Source: Antedon mediterranea (Eukaryota; Animalia; Echinodermata). From it: a stretch of DNA of 64,000 nt. Every line of letters starts with the position of its first letter. The stretch's first letter is position 1. Shown here one piece after another: positions 3,001 through 33,834 of this stretch. Position numbers and translations under genes: made by a program. The stretch covers positions 28,662,871-28,726,870 of the forward strand of contig NC_092676.1 in the NCBI RefSeq assembly GCF_964355755.1, in the 5' to 3' direction. The notes under the pieces are model-generated. The model saw only the letters and a program-made list of their open reading frames with translations. It had not been told where the DNA came from and searched no databases.

Positions 3001-4205
3001 TTGTATCACTTTTATCTGATGTCCATGTAGTAGAATCACCTAAACACCAACATGTTGTTACTGATACAAAACAGGTGAGATATCAAAAAATGGATAGTTG
3101 TAAATATAATTTTATTATTCTTTTATCTGCTATCTAATCAGTTGTTTTTATTTTATAAAGACTCCCAATGCATTATCATGACTGTGTTTTTTTTTAAATT
3201 TGAATTTTAGGAAGATTTAGTGACTGTCCCTTCAACACCTTCTATGCTGCAGAAGTCCTCAGAAAGTGTTGAAGATTTTGTGATGGTGGATCTAGTAAGT
3301 AATACAGATTATTTTAAGTTTATTTTAGTTTGTTAGAAACAGCTATTATTTGAATTGTCATCAGCTGTTGCAAACCCCAGCATGAGTCAGATGTCTGAAA
3401 TTTTAAAATTCCCACCCCAATTCCCCAGCAGAGATTGTCATATTAATAATTATATTTAAAGCATCTTTGCCTTGTCTGTTGTTAACTTCTCGCTATGGCC
3501 TTGGTATGTCATTTGTATATCATAATGTCAATATAACAACAAATAAAAACTTGAAAACATGAAAATTCTGGGGATGAGCAAATTAGATTGTTGTAATTCA
3601 ATGAGCCAGCTACTCTTTGTATTAAATATACTACATTAACAAAATTAATAAAATGTTAATAAATTTCAACTTAAAGTTATCTACTTACAAAAAAATCAAA
3701 TTTAAATAAAGGTGTATTAAAGTAAAACAAAATGGTTACTTTTTTTCAGAAACCAGCATTTGCTCGTTCTGATCCAACAAATGATTTTAGTAGTTTTTAT
3801 CGGGATTTGCAATCTGCTCCAGATTTAGAGATGTTTCAAAATCCCAGAAGCCTCTCAGAAACACTGGTAAGCTTATTTTATTTATTTTTAAGGTGATCAG
3901 GTCAAAAAAAATGTTTTTAAAGTTTAAAGATTTATTGTCCTAAACAATTTTTTTTTCCCAATTTTTATTTTAATATGCCATTTTAATTTCACATGTTTTT
4001 GGGGGACTACACATCTTTAAGCTTACAGTACTTGTTTATTTTCATAAACAAAAATGTAAAAGATATTTCAAATTGAATAATCATCAAATACATATATATA
4101 TTGCAGGGGGAAGTACCTAAACAATTAGCAAAATATGAAGCCAGTGCGGGTGAAATAAATGAGTTTGTGGAAAGACTATTGCAAACAAAAGAAGAAAATG
4201 AATAA
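1..4205 (+). CDS. ATG13: Autophagy-related protein 13, 3' portion (gene starts upstream of window); coding exons <1-95, 524-628, 2473-2652, 2915-3074, 3211-3294, 3750-3866, 4107-4205
   Basis: GT-AG introns with consistent phases. First exon reads YKSIQVGSVLTPVGSLVLSASYRTNL, matching the end of the ATG13 HORMA domain. Later exons give the LIR motif EDFVMVDL|KPAF, then FSSFYRDLQSAP, and the C-terminal helix QLAKYEASAGEINEFVERL, all characteristic of metazoan ATG13. Confidence 0.93.
284..505 (+). mobile_element. Degenerate SINE fragment (Deu/Nin-domain-like core)
   Basis: CTTCAGATGGGATGTAAAGC...GTGCACGTTAAAGAAC...AAGGGGA resembles the core of the SINE at 20116-20436 and a fragment near 57425-57480. 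It ends in a TACCT-type tail. Confidence 0.55.
701..2222. mobile_element. Non-autonomous foldback/Mutator-like DNA transposon in an ATG13 intron
   Basis: Left arm of tandem GGACAACTACCCCC units (~705-975) and right arm of the reverse-complement GGGGGTAGTTGTCC units (~1940-2222). Flanked by direct repeat ATATTGTGC (692-700 and 2223-2231). Confidence 0.85.
1628..1871. mobile_element. MITE nested inside the foldback element
   Basis: TIR GGGTGTTTCGAAACTAGAGACCCGAGACCAGAGACC and its exact reverse complement. Internal TACGAAAAGGGAGACC tandem units. Flanked by (A/G)TTAAAAAC direct repeats. Confidence 0.88.
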
Positions 4206-5087: not shown

Positions 5088-6484
5088 CCTCTTCACCACT
5101 TCTACACGAACTTTGATTATTAATTGTCAACAACCAAAACAATTAATCATATATTTTATCTCGTATATCGTGCAATAAAAACAAATAACGCGAAAACAAA
5201 AATAACAGAATAGTTCGTATTTACACATCATCTCCGTAAATACATTTAACATTTCAACATAAAACACTTGAAATCGTTGTGAACACTAATGTAAACAAGT
5301 GTGACGCCATTTAGATGCTTACAGTTATTACAGAATAAACATTGCGTACTTAAGATAAAATGTCAAATTAGTTCGACAAAATAGTGTGATGTGCCCAAAT
5401 ATGGTATTGATATGTTCAAATATGGTAGTGATATGACATCATCATGTCCATATATGGGCACATCACATTTTTTGACACAAAGTTTGATAGTGTAGACAGA
5501 GCTTAACGTATATTCGTGTCTAATAAGAGTTCTATAAAGCAAAATACTGGTTCATCCTGTCTGTTAGAAAGGACCATTAGCCTCCTAATGAATTTTAAAT
5601 GTATAAATGATTTTGCGTCATAATGACAACATAATGACATTCAAGGAAGTTGCTGAGTTAAATTAGCGATGTTTGCTTTATATTCAATACAGCCAGAACA
5701 GACAGTATATTAAATAGTAAATGTTCTTTTGGATGATCCAAAGTCGAATAAAATTCGTACGGAACAGACAGATTACATTTAAAATGTCATGTATCACTGA
5801 TAAAGTTATCTTTGACGAAAAGTGGCTTGTTTGTGTAGCCTAATTCACAATGTTGTTATCAATTTAGTTCCGCGATTCAATCATTAGTTTATTTATTCAT
5901 TCATTCCTCAGTGGTGTTCATGCAGTACATAATTTGAATATTGATAAGTTATGTGTACAACCATCCTCCATGGTACACGTGACGTGAGCATGAATCACGA
6001 TTATACGCAAGGACGCAATGTAAGGACTTCCAATCACAAGCGACGGATCATCCGAATGTCGTTTGTGATTGGTCAAATTATTTGCGTTGCGCGTACGACT
6101 TGTGTTGCTCGTACGACTTGCATTGCGCGTACGTCTTGTGTTGTGACATCGAACCAAACTTAAGTACGCGCTGGCGCCCGTATTCCTTTATGTTATGCAA
6201 CTGATGACGCGCCGTCTTGACTCTCACGTAACCACCTGCCGTATATCATTTAAAATAATCTATGATGTAATGGCTTTTAAAAGGCCATGTATTTATAAGT
6301 AAACAGACGTGTATTGTTATAGTAATGGAACACGTTCCTAACAGAAAGCAAACAAATGATATAGTACATGTTTATCTTTGTTATCAAGTTCATTCTAGCT
6401 TTCATTGTGGTGAGGTTGTTTACTGGTTGGTGATAGAACATTGTAACTCACTATAAATTATACTTAATACGAAATATATACAAA

Positions 6485-9400
6485 ATGGATTTGTATTTAG
6501 TATTCTTTGCAAGTGTTTCTTTTGTGGGGTGTTTAAGTCAATCGGTTGAGAACCCAACGTCTGTGTTGATCCTCGGGGCAGGAGCAACCGGCTTACAGGC
6601 CGCTCAGACTCTCATTGACAATGGAGTTGAAAACTTTTTAATCCTGGAAGGTGCAGACTATATCGGTGGCCGGGTGCATGATGTGGAGTTCGCTGGTGTT
6701 CAAGTAGAACAGGGCGCCAATTGGGCTCAACCGAGTAAAGGCAAAATTGAAGATTTGGTGAAAGAGCTTCAAATGGAAACTCATTTGACCAACTGGTACT
6801 CGTTCGTAGCTTACAATAGCACTGGACATAATATAACGGATGAAGCAACCCAAGTTTTTAATGTGGTAAGTCTCGTTACTAGGCCTAAATTGTGGCAGAT
6901 GTCAGTATTTCAATGGTCTTCTTATTAGAGGCGCATCAATTGCCAATGTTGCATAGACTATACAGAAAGGCAATCTAACAACTCACCTTGCCAAGTTAGG
7001 AATTCGTAACAATCTTCTGATGGTTATGGGTGGCTCTGCGTACTGTATATTATATTTGTGACGTGGAACTGATCGTGTCGTAGCCACAGGTAAACCCTTT
7101 GATCTCCAGAGCTCAGCATCATGTTGTTAGATTGCCTTATACAGTTTAAGTATTGATATAGGTCCTGCTGATTCTTGTACCAACTAAGAAAATCATGATT
7201 TTTTTTCTAATAAAGTTAGGCCTAATTTTCTAGATGGAAGAAAAGCTGAGGAAAGCATTTGACATTGCTGAAGATCTTTGGGATCTTGGAGACACCGATA
7301 TGTCAATTCGATCTGGATTGAGAACGGTTGGTTGGTTGCCAAAGACGCCCCTTGAACATACAATCGAATGGTCATACACAGACTACGAATTAGCAGATAT
7401 TCCAGAGGTAATTTACTAATGATCTAGTCTGTTACTTAAGCTGGAGGAATATGGAGTGAAAAGGTTGTTAGTTAGTTATTAATCTGCATTAAGTTATTAA
7501 ACATAACCACAAGTTCAAAGTATCATGGATTTTTATCTTTTTGGAATATATTTTCAAATTTCTTTAAGACAATGAGCTCGACAATGAGTCATTATGGATG
7601 TTTGGCTCCACCAGATACACCTTTCTACGTACCTACCTTTGATTGTCAATGGTGCATTCTATTTTGTATTCAGAATTTCAGTTCCATACAAATACTTTTC
7701 AAAAGCCTATTCGTTCTATCTCAACAGGCCCAATGGAAATCTATTGTGCGACATTCTATCTTCTCTTTTGAACATTGTAAATACTATTTGCTTTAAATAG
7801 TTAATACCCCTATTGGCATTTTTGAAACATAATACTACAGTATGTCAACCGGGATTTAATATCAAAAGCATTATTTATGTTTGACTCTTGCTTGGAAAGG
7901 CTTTCTGCGTTCTACGAGGTGACGGATTTCAACCAGTTTGACAGAAAAGTGTGATGTGCCCAAATATGGTAGTGATATGCTTGAGTATGGTAGTGATATG
8001 ACATCATCATGTCCATAAATGGGCACATCACATTTTGTTGTCACATAAAGTTTTGATAGTGTAGACAGAGCTTAACTGTTGCTTGTGATTGGTAAAAATT
8101 ACGTTGCATTACGCATACGTCCCTTCATTGCGTCCCCCCATGGATGGGTTTTTGGTAGACAGCAAAATACGTCAAATTGAGCGTGCTAATGCTTTGGCAA
8201 AAACCACCCTCACTGTTTTATGTCCTAGTGAAAACCACGCTCTAAAACCTGTTTGTGGCATTAATCTATGTTTTTATTTAGCTTTCATCTTTGAAATTTC
8301 ACTCCACTGAAGTTGACGAATTTATTAAACGTGCAGCTGGTAGTACCGATGAAGACAAACCTGTATTTGTTAAAGATCCACGTGGATACAAATACATTTT
8401 CAATGCTACTCTGGACTTCTTAGCAGACAAAACTAACAGGTAAATGTATGGTTATTTATCAATATATAAATTAGAAACATTTTCAATTATTTAGAAATCG
8501 TTTATTTTTTTCAATTGTTTTTAATTGCCTAGCAACAAGATTCTTCTGAACAAAGTTGTAACAACAGTCGACCAAACGTCACCAGATCACGTGATTGTTA
8601 CTTGTAGTGATGGGACACAATACCAAGCGACCAATGTCATTGTGACTTTTAGCTTAGCCGTGTTACAAAACCAAGTTGTCACTTTCAAACCCGACTTGCC
8701 AGGCTGGAAGATGAGGACGCTGAACCGTATCGAAATGGCGTCGTACAGCAAGATTTACGTGCAATTTCCGAAGAACTTCTGGGGTGACCGTGAGATTATC
8801 ATGAGAACTAGCGACCAGCGCGGAAAGTATCCATTTTTCATAAACTTGGAAGCAGAAGGTTAGTAATAACAATGCAATCCAATAACAGGATACTGAGCTC
8901 CGGAGATCAAAGGTTTTTTTTGTGGTTGCGACACGATCAGTTAAACGCTAAGTTTAACATCATCCACCGCTCGCCGCGGAGAACATGTACATAGTACAGT
9001 AGTGTTGGTATTTGTCGCAGCCAGACATAAGATCAAAGGACTGTTACGAGTTTCTCTCTTGGCAAGGCGAGCTCAGTGTCCTATTGTTAGATTACCTTGG
9101 TAATAATAGGTATTTTTTTAACATAAACTATTTTGTTTTACTAATTTTGTTTTTCTTCACATATTTTATCAATTATTATCTTTCCCTAGGTTTGTATCCC
9201 GAAGGAACAAATGCATTACTTGTAGAAGCGACTGGAGATGAGTCTAAACGAATCGAAGCTCAACCTGACGAAGTGACGAAAGCTGAAATCGAAGAAATGT
9301 TCAGGGGAATTTTTGGTGAGGAGAATGTTCCAAACATAACGAACATGTTCATTTCGGGTTGGACGCGGAACCCATTGACGCTAGGAGCATATTCTTTATG

Positions 9401-9689
9401 GACGCCAAACCTAGAAGAAGAGTGTGCTATTAAAATGCAGTCACGTGTTGATAGATTGTTTTTTGGTGGGGAACACACGAGCGAAAATAGTGGTTTTGTA
9501 ATTGGCGCGATGGAAAGTGGCGAGAGGGAAGCTTTGAAAGTTGTCGAATGCCAAGCGGGTAAAGATTGTCCCCAGTGGGAGGCAGAGCAATCGTGTTACT
9601 GTGGAACTAATGCGGTAGCTAAAAGTTCTGCTAATATTTTTGTAATTTCATTATTGGTCTTGTTTGTGTCTTGTATTAAAACTAACTGA
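6485..9689 (+). CDS. FAD-dependent polyamine oxidase-like enzyme (~512 aa) with signal peptide and hydrophobic C-terminal tail; exons 6485-6865, 7234-7407, 8282-8439, 8533-8858, 9190-9689
   Basis: GAGATG FAD motif, LEGADYIGGRV, VEQGANW, DYELAD, VKDPRGY, VIVTFSLAVLQ, MASYSKIYVQFP, WTRNPLTLGAYS and LFFGGEHT...GAMESG. All splice phases are consistent. Confidence 0.9.
6967..7138. mobile_element. MITE family D; related copies ~8875-9098 and ~55520-55723 (the latter inverted relative to 8875-9098)
   Basis: TIR AAGGCAATCTAACAAC / GTTGTTAGATTGCCTT. The 8875-9098 and 55520-55723 segments are reverse-complement similar. Confidence 0.7.
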
Positions 9690-10154
9690 AGCAAATTAAA
9701 TGTACATGGACGCGCATTGCTCATCTCTTATTATTTCTAACATGGATTAAAAAAAGCGTTAATTCTAATAAACCAATGTTTTGAACTATTAATTAATTTA
9801 ACACCGTGGTTAGACTTTATCAATTGCGTTAATTCTACCGGAATCCTATGCACGGCGTTAATCGAACAAATTTAACTGGTCTAAAAATATTTTAGTCGTC
9901 CGGTGTCTTCTTCCAACCTGAATCGTACTAATTACCATATAGATTAACACTGTGTTGATTAGTATGTCAATAATTAGTTTATTTAATAACGGTATCATCA
10001 ATAAAAAATTATATACTCTTTTGATGATTCATGAAACATACGTCATAGTTGAATCCAATCCTAAATGATTAAGACAGTAGCCTAATACACAAAACATTGT
10101 CTCGAAACAGACTCCCACGTCAGTAGAGTGACACAACGGGAAAACAAAAAGTTT

Positions 10155-10255
10155 ACGCGCAAGCCATCGGTTGTTAAACGCGCGAGCCATCGGTTGTTGA
10201 ACGCGCGAGCCATCGGTTGTTGAACGCGCGAGCCATCGGTTTTTGAACGCGCGTT
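10155..10255. repeat. 23-bp tandem repeat, ~4 copies
   Basis: Unit ACGCGCGAGCCATCGGTTGTTGA, seen directly. Confidence 0.9.
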
Positions 10256-11091: not shown

Positions 11092-11246
11092 AAGCTTGGT
11101 TCACACGCAACGCAAGGACGTAAGCGCAACGCAAGCGAGTTCGACCAATCACAAGCGAAAATTCGGATAATCCATCGCTTGTGATTGGTTAAATTTCTTA
11201 CATCGCGCTTACGTCGTGGCGTTACGTTCTAGTGGGAACTAAGCTT
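11092..11246. mobile_element. MITE family B; related copies ~5975-6162, ~30995-31169, 33044-33217 and the nest at 33294-33834
   Basis: Termini AGC(T/G)TGGTTCCCACTAG...CTAGTGGGAACCA(A/C)GCT (somewhat decayed in this copy), internal ACGCAACGCAA repeats and inverted ACCAATCACAAGCGA motif, with TAA/TTA flanks. Confidence 0.85.
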
Positions 11247-11321
11247 TAGTATTTAAGAAAAATGAGGCATTGAATCAAATACAATAGATACTAAACTAAC
11301 CGTTTTATTCTATCTATTGTT

Positions 11322-12528
11322 TTAACCAAAAAGAAAGTGACACCAGTCAAGTGTTTGTTCCGTCGAGTTGACGTCACCAAGCAGGTCTTGACACGGGTTC
11401 TTACTTTCACTTTTATCGTCTTTAAATCGTTTACCTATTGCAAACAAAAATAGTTGTTAGTTTTATATGATACATAATTGATGATGATGATGATGGCGAT
11501 GATTACGCTGTTAAAAATACAAATATTGGATAAGATTTAATGATGATACCGACAGATTGATTATGCGGGATGGTTATGTGTTTCATTTGAAGTCCGTCTA
11601 GGCCTACTCAACTTCAAATTTTTAATTTGATTATGAGACCAGTGATGATGCTATTATGAACATTAGAGTAATAGTGGTAGGCATGCTGATTATGATAAGA
11701 CAAAAAATGATAAAACGGATATGATAGAATGGATATTGATTATGATACCAAAGATGTTGATGATGAAAGTGTGGTTGAATTTTAGATTATGCTACTGATA
11801 AGACATAAAACAAATAATGAGACAGAGTGATGAATTGATGAAGATGATACTGATACCAGTGATGATGCTAATTTATGAAATGATCAGAGTAATACTGATA
11901 ATGATAAGACAAGGGATGATACAACGGGTATGATGGAACGGATATTTGTTATTGAGTAAATTATGGTACTAATAAAACAAAGATACATGAAACAGATAAT
12001 GATACAGAATGATGATGAAACTGATGAAGATGGCATGGATAAAAAACAATATATCAATGTCTTACCGTACGGCCCGGTCCACCATCCACCACGTGACTGT
12101 TCGCTAGATGCTCCTCTCTTCATATCAATATTACCAATAGATCGTTGAATCTTCCCTAATAAATATCCTTGATTTCTCAATCTATCAAAATATTGCAGAA
12201 ATTCACCCGAGGGCTGATTACGTATTCGAACCAGCAGCTGACAGAATGTTCCGCAATCTGTTAACCGTAAGATGGCAGGCAAATTGACGTCTTTTGCAGA
12301 ACTTCTTCCGTCAAATGCAGCGTTAAAGTAGTTATCTGCTGTGGAAGGTAAGGCTTCTAATGGCAAAGAGTTTGGACGGAGTTGTCCTGTTAAAACGGGA
12401 TGGTTATCATTTGAAGTTCGCCTAGGCTTACTCAACTTCCAGTTTTCTGCATTTTGCGACAGCAAAGACTTTGGTTGCACCACCGCTATCAGTAAAGGAA
12501 TGACCATTAACACTGTAATCATCTCCAT
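11322..12528 (-). CDS. Putative neuropeptide precursor (~191 aa); coding exons 12528-12066 and 11434-11322
   Basis: Hydrophobic signal peptide MEMITVLMVIPLLIAVVQP. Donor G|GTAAG at 12066/12065 and acceptor TTTGCAATAG|GT at 11435/11434. Splicing yields ...DMKR-GASSEQSRGGWWTGPY-GKR-FKDDKSESKNPCQDLLGDVNSTEQTLDWCHFLFG*. Confidence 0.8.
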
Positions 12529-13900
12529 ACCTAGGTTGTTATCCAAACGTGTGTATCAATTTAAGTTACCTGACAGTATTTATACATTTTTGTCTAATTT
12601 GAATGCAAATTATGCTTTCACACTTGTGGGCGTCCTGAAACTTGCAGTGCTAATTATAGGCTAGTGAATATTTGATGGGGATATTATAAGTTACACCGTG
12701 TTATTACTAAGTATTAATATTCAATTTCTGCTAACAAAAATAAAGTACACATATCACTTCTCGATTACAAATATCTATCATATATTAGTTTCTCCTTCTA
12801 GAAAGTGGAATAATTATGACGTCGCAATGTTGTTGATTTGAAGAATACATTTAGGCAGATGAAAATGGTGTTTTCTCTTTAGTGGCCATGACGTTTACAT
12901 AAAATTATGTAAAACAAAACTTTAAAATATTTGCATACAAAGTAAAACAATAAATGAAAGACAATGAAATGAAAAGTTAATCTGTGTAATATTCTTGCAC
13001 TTCTCACTTCATTTGGACAATTCTTGTTAATTTACAAAGTATTGATAAACCATAAACTTATTTTCAATATTAAAATCTTATTATTTAACAAGTCATGGAG
13101 ATAAAATTGTCCGTTACTTCTGCCTGACGACTTGATAGAAATTCAGGAATGAGATTTAGTCCATGCCTGGTCGCAGAGGTGGCACTCGAGAGGGTGGAGT
13201 AGGTATAAAGAAAGTCACGTTATGGAAATTGAAACATTTTGTAAAATTAAAAGCTCGCATGGTACACATTCCGCTCAGTTTGTACCCACGTGCGTAATAT
13301 CTGTCCCTATTTTGTTGTTTTAGTGACAATTTTCTATTCGTCATTTAGGCTTGACAGAAATTAATACCGATATAATTACCCAGAATCAAAAACGGAATCT
13401 CCAGAGGTGAGGCAGTATTGAAATGCAGTATAAACGCCTACGCAACAAGCAAAATATGTCATAAAATATTGTAATTTACACGTTACACGAAAGAAAATCA
13501 TTAGATTTATATTAAAAAACGAAAATAAAAACCATTAGATAAGTAGTACTAATGTACCGGTACACAATATTCACACGTCCAAATGTCTTAATTGAAATGA
13601 TACGTATACTATTTATGATGACGTCACTGATAACATCTTCGAATGTCAAATGTTGGTTCAATTACGGTACGTCAATTCGATTCAGATTGTTTTTAGTTTA
13701 AACTGAAAACGAACTCGTTTTGAAAATGATGAAGAGAGAAAGAAAGTTAACGCGCGAGTAGTTATCATTATCGCTCGTACTATTATCGTAGTTATCAGTT
13801 TAAACGCCCGCGTAACATGCATTATCGTTATCATTTTATACGCGCGCGTACCATTATCGTAGTTATCAGTTTAAACGCGCGCGTAATATTATTCAACCAT

Positions 13901-21700: not shown

Positions 21701-24700
21701 AGTGCTCACCTTCTAATCCTAGTATCATGGGTTTAAATCCAATGTGGTGTCAATTCCACTTAATCAATAGGCTCATCATTTTGATGTTAGAAGAATTGAT
21801 AAAAGGGATGTCAAAATATGGTATATAGGCCATATTGAAAGTTAATGGTTATAAGACCAAGTTCATGGCCTTGGTTCAAATCCTATTTAATATCATAATT
21901 GGAACTTAATTATTCATAAAGTGGAGGCCTTTGTAGAACCTTCTGACTGTTAATTATTTCTTTTATTTAAATAATTATTTAGGTAATCTTGCCTTATTGC
22001 TTTACTGTGTTCTGGTCGCATTTTTGTATGTTATGCAAAATAATTGATACAATATAACTATAAATTCTGGTTTGTAGGGATGTTTTAAAATACATGTCAA
22101 CTAAACCTAAAAAGGACAGTGTACCAGCTAAATCAACGACAGCTACAACTCAAACAATTTCACCTCCACAAATGTCTGGTGTCAAAGGTCATAAGGTAGT
22201 TTGTATTCTTCCACTTACAACACCACTCTGCAAGTATTAGACATCACACCTTTTTTTTGTCAAACTAGGTAGACAGAGCTTAATACACACTAAATTAAAG
22301 TGTTTCACTTAAGTGATTTTAATGACCACATTACCTAGTTAATTAATGTAATACTATACACACCTGAAGCAATTAGTTGATTACTTAATGATTAGTAATA
22401 ACAGTTATTAAGAAATAATGATAAATTACGTTACTTATCAATTAAAATTTGTTTATAAGCATTTGAATGTTTACACCATGAAGAATAATGTTTGCAGTAT
22501 CTTTGCATAATTTCTTGAACATAATCTATCAACTGTTTGGACAAAGGACGTTGACCGATTAACTTCATGAGACGGATGACCACTTTTATTGAACTCTGAT
22601 GCACAATCTGTAGTAGAACTAATGTTGTGTAAATGTCCTTAAAATTGTTTTTTCAATTTCTTTTAGACTCCAGCTTATGAGGATTTAGAATTAAGTAATA
22701 TGCGGAAGGTTATTGCCAGACGTCTGACAGAATCTAAGGTTACATTTATTATAGTGTTAGCCCCCCCCCCCTCCCCCCCCCCTTCTTCCTTTCCAAATTA
22801 AGAAATAAGATAGCAGGGAAATTGTTAATACATTTAACATACAATGATGCATACAAGGTCAGAGGTCACCATTCCTTTTTTTTTACTCATCTATATTTTT
22901 TCTAAATTAAGCAATGAGATACAAGGGAAATGTTTAGTACATTTAACGTATACAGAATCATATCAAGCTGATGCATACAAGGTCAGAGGTCACTTCTCCT
23001 TCAGATGTTCATTACCTTTACTTTTTCGAAGGATGAACTTGGTTATTTTTAGTGACATTTTGTATGCAGTTTGCCTGTTTGTTTTGATCCAACTTAGTCA
23101 ATATCTAAAATAATGGAAATGTCTGAATTTTGATTCTAAATTTACAACAGTAATTATCCATTTCATCATTATATTAATTATATATATATATTAATTATAA
23201 TATAATTTGTAAAAATTGCTAGTGTTGCCCGAAAGATCGGCTTGGCAACTTTTTCTGGCTGTTTTCCTTTATCATTTTGATTTAGCTTCTTGCTTATTTT
23301 ATTTTGTATCACCATTGAGATCCAGCCACTGATACCCACAGCATTGTCATTATTTTCAGTAATTTGTCTTTGGATTTAATTATAATATAATATATAAATA
23401 ATTCCGATCACCTGGATAGAGTGCTTGATAAACAGAGGTAGAGGTAAATTATTAATTATATATATATATATACATCACAGACACAGAATAAATTCTAAAC
23501 CGCCCGGTGATATACTGAAATTTAATTAATTAATTTGAAATGATAAAGATGAGTAAATCTGTGAGAATGAGAAAAGGTCACCCCAACATATATTATTTAT
23601 TTCAAATATTTCTATATTTCAGAGTACTGTACCACATGCATATGCTACAATAGAATGTACAATAGACGCAATATTAAAACTAAGGAAATCATTTGCAAGG
23701 GACAAATCCAAGCTATCTGTCAATGACTGTGTTATTAAGGCGGCTGCAATGGCTCTTAAAGTAAGTTTAGGTTTGAATCCTACATTGTACCTGTGGCTCA
23801 CACCATATGTCAATGACTTTGTTATTAAAGCGGCTGCAATGGCTCTTAAAGTGAGTTTAGGTTTGAATCCTACATTGTACCTGTGGCTCACACCATATGT
23901 CAATGACTTTGTTATTAAGGTGGCTGCAATGGCTCTTAAAGTGAGTTTAGGTTTGAATCCTACATTGTGCCTGTGGCTCACACCATATGTCAATGACTTT
24001 GTTATTAAGGCGGCTGCAATGGCTCTTAAAGTGAGTTTAGGTTTGAATCCTACATTGTACCTGTGGCTCACACCATATGTCAATGACTTTGTTATTAAGG
24101 CGGCTGCAATGGCTCTTAAAGTGAGTTTAGGTTTGAATCCTACATTGTGCCTGTGGCTCACACCATATGTCAATGACTTTGTTATTAAGGCGGCTGCAAT
24201 GGCTCTTAAAGTGAGTTTAGGTTTGAATCCTACATTGTACCTGTGGCTCACACCATATTAGCCAAGATCTTTAAACTTTTAAATTCTGTTTATTTTTTGA
24301 TAAAAGTATAAACATCTTCAACTTATTGATAGGCTAATTGTTTGTTTGTTTGTTTGTTTGTTTGCTAATTAACTTGTTTGTTCGAAAGTAGAGTATTTAT
24401 TACTTATTTATATATTACTTAAGACTTTTTTAAAACCAAATAGTTTAAATATTGTTAGGCGCTCTGTTCTTAGTAGAGGGCGCCATATAAAAGCCTAAAT
24501 AGAATAGAATATTTAAAACTATTTTTATCGAAATAAAAAACACTTCTGTGATTTCTTTTCCCCACTAAAAGGAGCACCCAAAAGTAAATTCACAATGGAA
24601 AGATGAGGGTGTTGTACAGATGGCCAATGTTGACATATCAGTTGCTGTGGCAACAGAACAAGGACTGATTACACCGATTGTGACAGATGCTTCGAATAAA

Positions 24701-30738: not shown

Positions 30739-31233
30739 TAGGCTTAAGTGTACTATCGCTGAGCATGCAATTCAAGATTTGATAAATCCATGCCCTGAGA
30801 TTGCATGATGACCCCATTAATGACCCCATTGTCAATTTAAGGAATCGAGGAAGCTTTCTTTTGAATGTTTTGTCTTGTGCACATGCAAGCATTGTCAAAA
30901 TACATGCGAATGTCTCTAGTGCACATGCAACGCATTGTCAAAATACATGCGAACTAGATTCGGTTGATTTTCTATAGTCAAACTCGAAAGAGACACACGC
31001 AAGTAATTTGACCAATCACAAGCAATGATTATCTGAACTGTCTGCTTGTGATTAATCGACTCGCTTGTGATTGATCGACTCGCTTGCGTTGCTCTTACGT
31101 CATTGCGTTGCGCTTACGTCAATTGCGTTGCGCTTACGTCATTGCGTTGCGTCCTAGTGGGAACCATGCTCAAGAATGCCATTTTAATATCATGATATTT
31201 AAAATTCATTTGTTGTCTTTACTTTCTTTAGAA

Positions 31234-32124
31234 ATGGTGAATGTATCTCAGGACAGGATGCATTTGTACGAGTTCGAACGGACGTTTGATCTGCCGTATT
31301 ACGTCAACTTTTTCGGGACATACTGGCCGTTTGGAATACTGATCAGTATCATATATTTAATAACAATATTCTCTATTCAGAAGTGGATGAAAGATAGACC
31401 AGCGTTTAGTCTCCGTCCACCGCTCTTCGCCTGGAACGTAATGCTGGCTCTTTTCAGTATAGGTGGCGCACTAAGATGTTCGCCATTTCTTCTGTATGCC
31501 GTCTGGTACGACAGTTTCCATGACAGCGCGTGCAATTCAGAGTACTACGCCAACAATGGGTTTTGGGGAGCCGCTTTTGCCTTTTCGAAAGTAGTAGAAC
31601 TCGGCGATACATTGTTCGTCGTTCTTCGTAAACAAAAACTTATATTCTTGCATTGGTATCATCATATTTCTGTGATGATATGCACCTTTATCGTTTTCGG
31701 GAACCAGAGCTCGGTTGGGTTTTGGTTCTGTGGTATGAATTACGCAGTTCATGCTATTATGTACCCGTACTACGCGTTACGCGCAGCTGGTGTACGCACT
31801 CCAAGAATTGTACCAATGTGCATCACTACTATACAACTGGTACAGATGTTTCTAGGAATGTTCGTCGTAGGCTATGTGATTGTTATGCGAATGACCGGAC
31901 AGAAATGCGACACGACGGATGGCCGACTTATATACTCGTCTCTAATGTACCTTAGCTACACAGTTCTCTTCGCACAGTTCTTCTACAACGCATACGTAAA
32001 ACGAAAGGATGGCAAGGCTAAGAAGGTCGATGGTCCTCATGAAAAGACACACGTCATATCTAACGGAGTAAACGGCACCCATACAAACGGACTTAAACGC
32101 CGTCCGGTGTCAAACGGAGAGTAG
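31234..32124 (+). CDS. Fatty-acid elongase, ELOVL3/6-like (296 aa), single coding exon
   Basis: WNVMLALFSIGG, FAFSKVVELGDTLFVVLRKQKLIFLHWYHH (His box), MNYAVHAIMYPYYAL, ITTIQLVQM and MYLSYTVLFAQFFY. A splice acceptor (TTTCTTTAG, 31231) lies just before the ATG. The ORF-track extension from 31084 is MITE/intron sequence. Confidence 0.93.
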   Translation: MVNVSQDRMHLYEFERTFDLPYYVNFFGTYWPFGILISIIYLITIFSIQKWMKDRPAFSLRPPLFAWNVMLALFSIGGALRCSPFLLYAVWYDSFHDSACNSEYYANNGFWGAAFAFSKVVELGDTLFVVLRKQKLIFLHWYHHISVMICTFIVFGNQSSVGFWFCGMNYAVHAIMYPYYALRAAGVRTPRIVPMCITTIQLVQMFLGMFVVGYVIVMRMTGQKCDTTDGRLIYSSLMYLSYTVLFAQFFYNAYVKRKDGKAKKVDGPHEKTHVISNGVNGTHTNGLKRRPVSNGE

Positions 32125-32912: not shown

Positions 32913-33834
32913 AGGCCAGTTTACACAGACGAGCGGTAACGGTAAGTCGTAAACAAAAATATAATTATGACCATTTACACAAAACTTGATAGGACGGGTG
33001 GTTGAGGATAGGACACATTCTACGTGGGAAAGCTACGCGCTAAAGCGTGGTTCCCACTAGCGACGCAACGCAAGGACGCAACGCAAGTGAATTGACCAAT
33101 CACAAGCGATGGCTTATTCGCTTGTGATTGCTATCTGTCTATAAATTCGCTTGTCATTGGTTAAAACGCTTGCGTTGCGTTTACGTCCTTGCGTTACGTT
33201 CTAGTGGGAACCAAGCTTTACCGTTAACGCTAGATCGTGTAAATTGGCTTTTACTTTGTAGTATATTAGTGAGATGTCCCCTGCTTTTCTCTAAGCTTGG
33301 TTCCCACGAAACGTAGGGACGTAACGCAACATAAATGATTTGACCAATCAAAAGAAATGGATTATTCGAACAGTCGCTTGTCATTGGTCAACTCGCTTAA
33401 GCTTGGTTCTCACTAGCGACGCAACGTAACGCAATCTACGCAACGTAAGAAAATGCCCTTCCAATCATTGTATTTGTCCTCGCCTGCGTGAAACCAAACC
33501 TGCGATTTTTGCAGCACTGTTGCGTCGTCGGTTCCCACTTGTGATTAAAGCGTGGTTCCCACTAGCGACGCAACACAAGGACGTAACGCAACGCAAGTGA
33601 ATTGACCAATCACAAGCGATGGCTTATTCGCTTGTTATTGCTGTCTCTAACTTCGCTTGTCATTGGTTAAAACGCTTGCGTTGCGTTTACGTCCTTGCGT
33701 TACGTTCTAGTGGGAACCACGCTTACGCAATACAGCACTTTGCGTCAATACGTCGTTGCGTTACGTTGCTAGTGGGAACCACGCTTTGTGTTACTTCTAC
33801 GTCCTTGCGTTGCGTCTTTAGTGGGAACCAAGCT
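32913..33834. mobile_element. Cluster of nested MITEs
   Basis: Family B copy 33044-33217 lies inside another TIR element 32913-33250 (relative at ~63390-63560). Three family-B-terminus elements are nested: 33549-33723 in 33400-33785 in 33294-33834. Confidence 0.85.

Follow-up and report, generated by a model that had tools for sequence, protein, structure and literature searches.

A spliced and conserved precursor of a predicted amidated peptide in the feather star Antedon mediterranea

Does the minus strand of a stretch of the Antedon mediterranea genome encode the precursor of a secreted, amidated signalling peptide and, if so, to which neuropeptide family does that peptide belong? We addressed this question for the window, which is the whole stretch of 64,000 nucleotides that was analysed (assembly GCF_964355755.1, contig NC_092676.1, positions 28,662,871 to 28,726,870). 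An earlier note, made from the letters alone, had proposed a single-copy amidated peptide precursor outside the known families. This proposal is borne out by a spliced transcript in one sequencing run (X1) and by a relative in Anneissia japonica, in which conservation is centred on the peptide. We conclude that the gene is a real, spliced and conserved precursor of ordinary prohormone design (Table 1). Its spliced mRNA probably yields a 191-aa predicted secreted prohormone, from which GASSEQSRGGWWTGPY-amide would be released, likely as a neuropeptide or hormone acting on a GPCR.

Table 1 Features of the precursor gene and its neighbours, in window positions
Feature	Position	Strand	Remarks
Two-exon gene	exon 1 12528-12066, intron 12065-11435, exon 2 11434-11322	-	product 191 aa
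Likely 5' untranslated region	12529..12681	-	continuous with exon 1 in an unbroken X1 contig; its start is beyond what contigs can reveal
Coding exon 1 (463 nt)	12066..12528	-	signal peptide, pro-region, KR, peptide, base 1 of the Gly codon; X1 contig 12062-12681
Predicted signal peptide, about residues 1-19	12472..12528	-	by hydropathy alone
Pro-region, about 115 aa	12121..12471	-	holds WKLS 12441-12430, RR 12423-12418, Cys92/Cys96 12255-12241
N-terminal dibasic site	12115..12120	-	KR (KK in Anneissia)
Predicted mature peptide GASSEQSRGGWWTGPY, 16 aa	12067..12114	-	amide predicted; calculated [M+H]+ 1724.78
Phase-1 GT-AG intron, 631 nt	11435..12065	-	interrupts the amide-donor Gly codon; X1 joint; RefSeq protein
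Coding exon 2	11322..11434	-	rest of the Gly codon, KR 11432-11427, 34-aa tail, stop; X1 contig 11300-11435
C-terminal tail, 34 aa	within 11322..11434	-	Cys169, Cys186, conserved WCxFLF
Candidate poly(A) signal AATAAA	11304..11309	-	13 nt past the stop codon
Flavin amine oxidase (PF01593)	6437-9689	+	
Presumably PDHX-like gene	about 18.9-25.5 kb	+	read from ORFs
ELO-family elongase (PF01151)	31075-32124	+	
NDT80-domain, MYRF-like gene (PF05224)	about 43-64 kb	+	

The reading frame opens with an ATG at 12528 and closes with a stop codon at 11324-11322. The donor that follows 12066 reads GTAAGA, the acceptor ahead of 11434 reads CAATAG, and exon 2 opens with GT AAA CGA. Among the 81 AG dinucleotides between 12026 and 10001, the acceptor at 11434 is the sole one that gives Gly plus a dibasic pair. 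The coordinates proposed earlier for the peptide (12114-12067), for the phase-1 intron cutting the Gly codon and for the start of exon 2 are thus correct, and joining 12066 to 11434 reads G-K-R, as had been predicted for the spliced message. The accompanying statement that the peptide is visible only after splicing went slightly too far: KR-peptide-G-K can be read in the unspliced frame, and splicing is needed only for the complete G-K-R and the tail. The spliced product is identical to the RefSeq proteins XP_071955119.1 and XP_071955120.1 (both "uncharacterized protein [Antedon mediterranea]", 191 aa). This record probably derives from the same assembly and is therefore not independent support, and its gene model may rest on the same RNA data as X1. 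That two RefSeq accessions share one protein hints at alternative untranslated regions.

Five sequencing runs (X1-X5) cover the stretch. None of them is recorded as RNA, and X1, for which contigs only from one run of one study are at hand, was taken as RNA by guess; X2-X4 are DNA-like and come from one sample. A contig of X1 joins 11430 to 12062, skipping 631 positions with CT..AC ends (cut shifted by +4, 25 letters on the short side), and so contains the junction 12066^11434 that had been put forward as a check on the gene. The joint is thus present in the one RNA-like run and missing in all three DNA-like runs (X2-X4), whose contigs run through the intron. Another single X1 contig links 8531-8856 to 9188-10206, which are exons of the adjacent amine oxidase gene; this speaks for X1 being RNA. 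The spliced contig has a depth of 28.5 and a companion intron-containing contig one of 4.7, although depth per contig says little about level. The region 13046-13447 is uncovered in X1, which carries no evidential weight. Among the joints listed for the contigs of X1-X5, no exon joint upstream of the gene was seen. Of the seven coding differences between the runs compared, five leave the amino acid unchanged (p 0.008-0.024, according to how transitions are weighted), and none of the seven falls inside the peptide, which at such a count is not significant.

The predicted protein has the layout of a prohormone. Mean hydropathy over 11 residues peaks at 3.19 within residues 6-17 and stays at or below 1.36 beyond residue 25. 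The Anneissia protein behaves similarly, and in both the hydropathy profile shows a single hydrophobic stretch, at the N-terminus, with none of membrane length further on. The earlier description of a signal peptide followed by KR holds in that a predicted signal peptide and KR are both there, although about 115 residues lie between them, with a Cys pair (residues 92 and 96) and an RR site, and the peptide begins only at residue 139 of 191. Likewise, the 34-aa tail carries two Cys as described, but their spacing is C-x16-C rather than C-x15-C.

The relative was found with phmmer. Among 1.84 billion representatives (E up to 0.001) there were three matches, namely the protein itself, P0002 and P0003. 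P0002, a kiwi repeat protein, was discarded, as its E value of 2e-23 is repeat-inflated (17 stretches on residues 7-55). P0003 is XP_033123846.1 from Anneissia japonica (LOC117122402, 212 aa; E 4e-8, 35% identity across residues 2-190). It reads KK-ASTSSEQARDGWWTGPF-GKR. Its N-terminus is signal-like, a dibasic pair comes after WKLS, and there is one Cys pair in the pro-region and another, with WCxFLF, in the tail. In both species a dibasic site thus precedes the peptide and G-KR follows it, and the common motif is SSEQxRxGWWTGP[YF]-GKR.

Conservation had been expected to focus on WWTGPY-GKR, and in P0003 it is indeed centred on WWTGP[YF]-GKR. By region, 6/19 residues are identical in the signal peptide, 30/117 in the pro-region, 11/16 in the peptide, 3/3 in GKR and 12/34 in the tail. 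Peptide plus GKR accordingly has 14 of 19 identical residues compared to 49 of 172 elsewhere (Fisher p 1.6e-4, an alignment-dependent value for a region picked before the homolog was found). The best ungapped 19-mer gives 15/19 on the peptide versus 7/19 outside residues 126-165. The comparison rests on two sequences, both from feather stars.

The same alignment bears on whether the active product might instead be a disulfide-linked part, formed by the pro-region and tail Cys pairs or by the tail alone, with the amidated peptide as a spacer or secondary product. Four Cys are present in both species and WCxFLF is kept in the tail, as such a product would suggest. The Cys spacings differ between the species, however (x3 versus x5 in the pro-region, x16 versus x13 in the tail), and identity peaks in the peptide, not around the Cys, so that we regard this explanation as highly improbable. 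In a precursor of GASSEQSRGGWWTGPY-amide, the four Cys (two in the pro-region and two in the tail) would likely help folding or sorting. As a separate observation, the segment past the signal peptide (12418-12471, minus strand) reads N-x(2-3)-WKLS followed by RR or RK in both species; it could be a second, non-amidated product.

Cleavage by a convertase, trimming by a carboxypeptidase and amidation by PAM, in this order, are established prohormone biology. Applied to this precursor, the signal peptide would take the chain into the secretory pathway, a convertase would cleave at KR and at G-KR, a carboxypeptidase would trim the basic pair, and PAM would amidate the Tyr with Gly as the donor. 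The released GASSEQSRGGWWTGPY-amide would then bind its GPCR via the aromatic C-terminal GWWTGP[YF]-amide end. The N-terminal site counts against this reading in Anneissia, where it is KK, a weaker convertase site, compared to KR in Antedon. The earlier note had also considered trimming at the monobasic Arg to GGWWTGPYamide. For monobasic Arg cleavage, a basic residue at P4, P6 or P8 is expected. The Arg of the peptide has none at these positions, and the SSEQ upstream of it is identical in both species, which makes such trimming doubtful. We therefore favour the full 16-17-mer over the Arg-trimmed 8-mer. The calculated [M+H]+ of the full and trimmed forms is 1724.78 and 922.42 for A. mediterranea and 1881.85 and 964.43 for A. 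japonica.

Searches for further relatives returned the two feather star proteins. The exon-1 search retained 1 of 23 candidates, the 191-aa A. mediterranea protein, and the search with the C-terminal region retained 1 of 2. A two-sequence profile recovered just the Antedon and Anneissia proteins among 1396 candidates. No relatives outside crinoids were found in the exon-1, C-terminal, profile, phmmer and metagenome searches. Word-based and single-sequence searches are weak for precursor families defined by short motifs, so that the lack of a family may reflect divergence too great to be recognised. In the metagenome scan, one of 322 pattern matches (L001) had 12 identical residues at 3097-3132 of a contig of fungal type, a label read from its gene content. 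It lies in non-coding DNA and was ruled out: a stop stands 11 codons upstream of it, KR and GPY-GKR are both missing, and its Ser codons belong to different families; with a rough chance probability of about 0.01, it is an unusually good chance match.

Pfam contains no family matched by the precursor, and the best hits of the PDB sequence search had E values of 0.92 and 1.1. AlphaFold on the two-sequence alignment was uninformative (pLDDT 33.9), and in the Atlas structure search every TM score was under 0.3. Among the matches listed for P0003 in the ESM Atlas feature space, 8 of 10 neighbours are neuropeptide precursors, but they belong to eight different families at 0.86-0.88, all under 0.9, and so provide a lead for the class only and favour no family.

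The gene could also encode a processed and amidated product that is non-neuronal, such as a defensive secretion, a secretion of the epidermis or gonad, or a cue akin to a pheromone, in which case its pro-region would be evolving fast. No tissue is recorded for X1, and the 35% identity between the two feather stars looks by eye to be below that of most precursor pairs in the crinoid catalogue, although PCNP3 and others are divergent as well. Typical antimicrobial peptides are cationic. This peptide is not, as it contains one Glu and one Arg and is net negative in Anneissia. A single copy that is conserved across two families suits the ligand of a receptor, and the Atlas neighbours, as a lead only, are neuropeptide precursors. 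A non-neuronal product therefore seems quite unlikely to us.

Has the peptide been described before? The precursor is apparently undescribed and so far limited to feather stars. In the crinoid catalogue of Aleotti et al. 2022 (PMC9793003), it is not in supplementary file 2, and its motif was not found in the seven files available. In the supplements at hand, the motif had no matches in ophiuroids, for which GKR as a control was positive, and none, in searches run without a control, in sea cucumbers and xenacoelomorphs (PMC6188537, PMC6586643). The blank in the hemichordate supplement (PMC10508912) carries no weight, since these files contain no GKR at all. A full-text search of the open literature on the motif, the accessions and the amide names returned unrelated papers only or none. 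Family features were drawn also from PMC4200219 and PMC5996578 (Wx3Yamide), PMC5627052 (brittle stars) and PMC6593056 (spexin).

Within the crinoid catalogue, the closest parallels in design are PCNP2-20, which likewise combine a signal peptide with a dibasic-bounded, often amidated peptide and belong to no family. As far as the catalogue is available, none of them carries the GASSEQSRGGWWTGPY sequence or its motif (PMC9793003). Crinoid KPP2 also resembles the precursor in having a single amidated peptide, situated in its C-terminal half between KR and G-KR, and a two-Cys tail. In contrast to the Antedon peptide, however, KP2 has a Gly-Met-X-amide end and an H-X-F core. Moreover, KPP2 is described with a single coding exon in starfish (PMC9400282), whereas the Antedon gene has two, and A. 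mediterranea already has its own KPP2 besides this gene.

The earlier note had pointed to a loose resemblance to molluscan Wx3Yamides and to echinoderm bombesin-type peptides, and both comparisons fail on motif and architecture. A W-x3-Y-amide end is present in Antedon. The Wx3Yamide definition comes from three scallop peptides only, which lie on one precursor and end in W-x-I-A-Y-amide, whereas the Antedon peptide is single-copy with W-T-G-P and its Anneissia counterpart ends in Phe. Echinoderm bombesin-type peptides share Gly-Pro near an amidated Tyr end and a phase-1 intron at the peptide, and chordate members carry a Trp upstream of the Gly, as does the Antedon peptide (PMC12002301). Apart from a phase-1 intron that falls within the peptide, bombesin-type genes contain further introns in phase 0 (Huang et al. 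2025, PMC12002301). In echinoderms they have three coding introns, whereas the Antedon gene has one, located in the amide-donor Gly codon. The bombesin-type peptide described in that source also adjoins the signal peptide, whereas the Antedon peptide starts far downstream. PRXN and RIFGPXX-amide are missing, and the end is GPX and not GPXX, with GP one residue nearer to the amide (PMC12002301). The available part of PMC12002301 reports no crinoid members of this family. We observed that AmedPCNP5 in supplementary file 2 of PMC9793003 carries its amidated peptide directly behind the signal peptide, with a P-K-S-N close to PRXN; as a lead only, it may fit better as the bombesin-type precursor that is so far missing from crinoids.

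In a 14-residue frame whose last residue bears the amide, the Antedon and Anneissia peptides resemble galanin and spexin by Gly12 and an aromatic residue at position 9. G-K/R-R after the peptide and a peptide end near an exon border are likewise shared. On the other hand, one of the four conserved positions (2, 9, 10 and 12) is identical, with no Trp2, Tyr9 or Leu10, the pro-region is long, and there are two coding exons compared to 5-6 exons. The amidated end has W-[ST]-x-P-[FY] in common with phoenixin (from SMIM20), according to the consensus in PMC9004410. SMIM20, however, is small, conserved along its length and has QPGGMKV before the Trp, whereas the Antedon precursor lacks this motif and matches no Pfam family. 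In GnRH and corazonin precursors, the single amidated peptide directly follows the signal peptide (PMC4772807), whereas the segment at this place in Antedon and Anneissia ends at RR or RK without Gly. TRH-type precursors contain many short pyroglutamyl copies, 12 in starfish (PMC4772807), compared to the single copy here. Luqin is set apart by its RW-amide end, and crinoid luqins are already known.

Judged by sequence, every family tested thus fails at least one defining feature, and likeness between short aromatic amidated ends arises easily. It is nevertheless conceivable that the gene belongs to a known bilaterian family from which it has diverged strongly and whose echinoderm or crinoid ligand is still missing, most plausibly the galanin/spexin/allatostatin-A type or a bombesin-related peptide for one of the bombesin-receptor relatives that have no match as yet. 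As of 2017, no ligand was known for the galanin-type receptors of the sea urchin genome (PMC5860471), the catalogue as available contains no GnRH, corazonin, TRH, tachykinin or somatostatin types from crinoids (PMC9793003), and echinoderm peptides are often assigned only after receptor tests (PMC9400282). The Gly12 and aromatic 9 of the galanin/spexin frame point in the same direction. Against this stand the mismatches at the remaining galanin/spexin positions, the lack of signal-peptide adjacency, PRXN and GPXX for bombesin, the exon and intron numbers, the missing Pfam match and the Atlas neighbours that favour no family. Taken together, we consider membership of a known family unlikely. The two feather star precursors are best treated, at the level of their sequences, as a crinoid peptide family without current assignment.

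The surroundings of the gene contain several repeats. Within the intron, 11566-11622 is a 57-nt copy, 81% identical, of the exon-1 stretch 12396-12446 around WKLS-RR, which is probably a relic of local duplication. A separate 120-nt duplication pairs 11628-11743 with 11845-11952. Just downstream of the gene lies a high-copy palindromic element (11105-11248), likely a MITE, with further copies at 6014-6108, 31001-31170, 33040-33220 and 33546-33787. A tandem repeat of about 93 nt in about seven copies (23557-24261) takes in part of a coding exon of the presumed PDHX-like gene. Additionally, a 341-nt X1 contig at 14845-15185 (depth 22.4), located 2.2 kb upstream of the gene and otherwise unmatched within the window, could represent either an untranslated exon or a dispersed repeat.

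All other living echinoderms together form the sister group of the crinoids, whose neuropeptide catalogue is described as incomplete (PMC9793003). At the same time, several echinoderm neuropeptide receptors are without a known ligand (PMC12002301, PMC5860471). The gene offers one concrete, conserved and synthesizable candidate with calculated masses for receptor pairing and mass spectrometry. Given its ordinary design and the some 19 other unassigned crinoid precursors already listed, it would be surprising only if an ancient orphan receptor turned out to be its partner. One speculative reading, to which we give a small but appreciable chance, is that it represents the first member seen of an ancient family kept in crinoids, the missing ligand of an orphan echinoderm GPCR (of the galanin/allatostatin-A type or one of the bombesin-receptor relatives ArBNR2-11), with relatives elsewhere too diverged for sequence search. 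If true, this pairing with an orphan GPCR would close a gap that still stands in the account of how deuterostome neuropeptides evolved.
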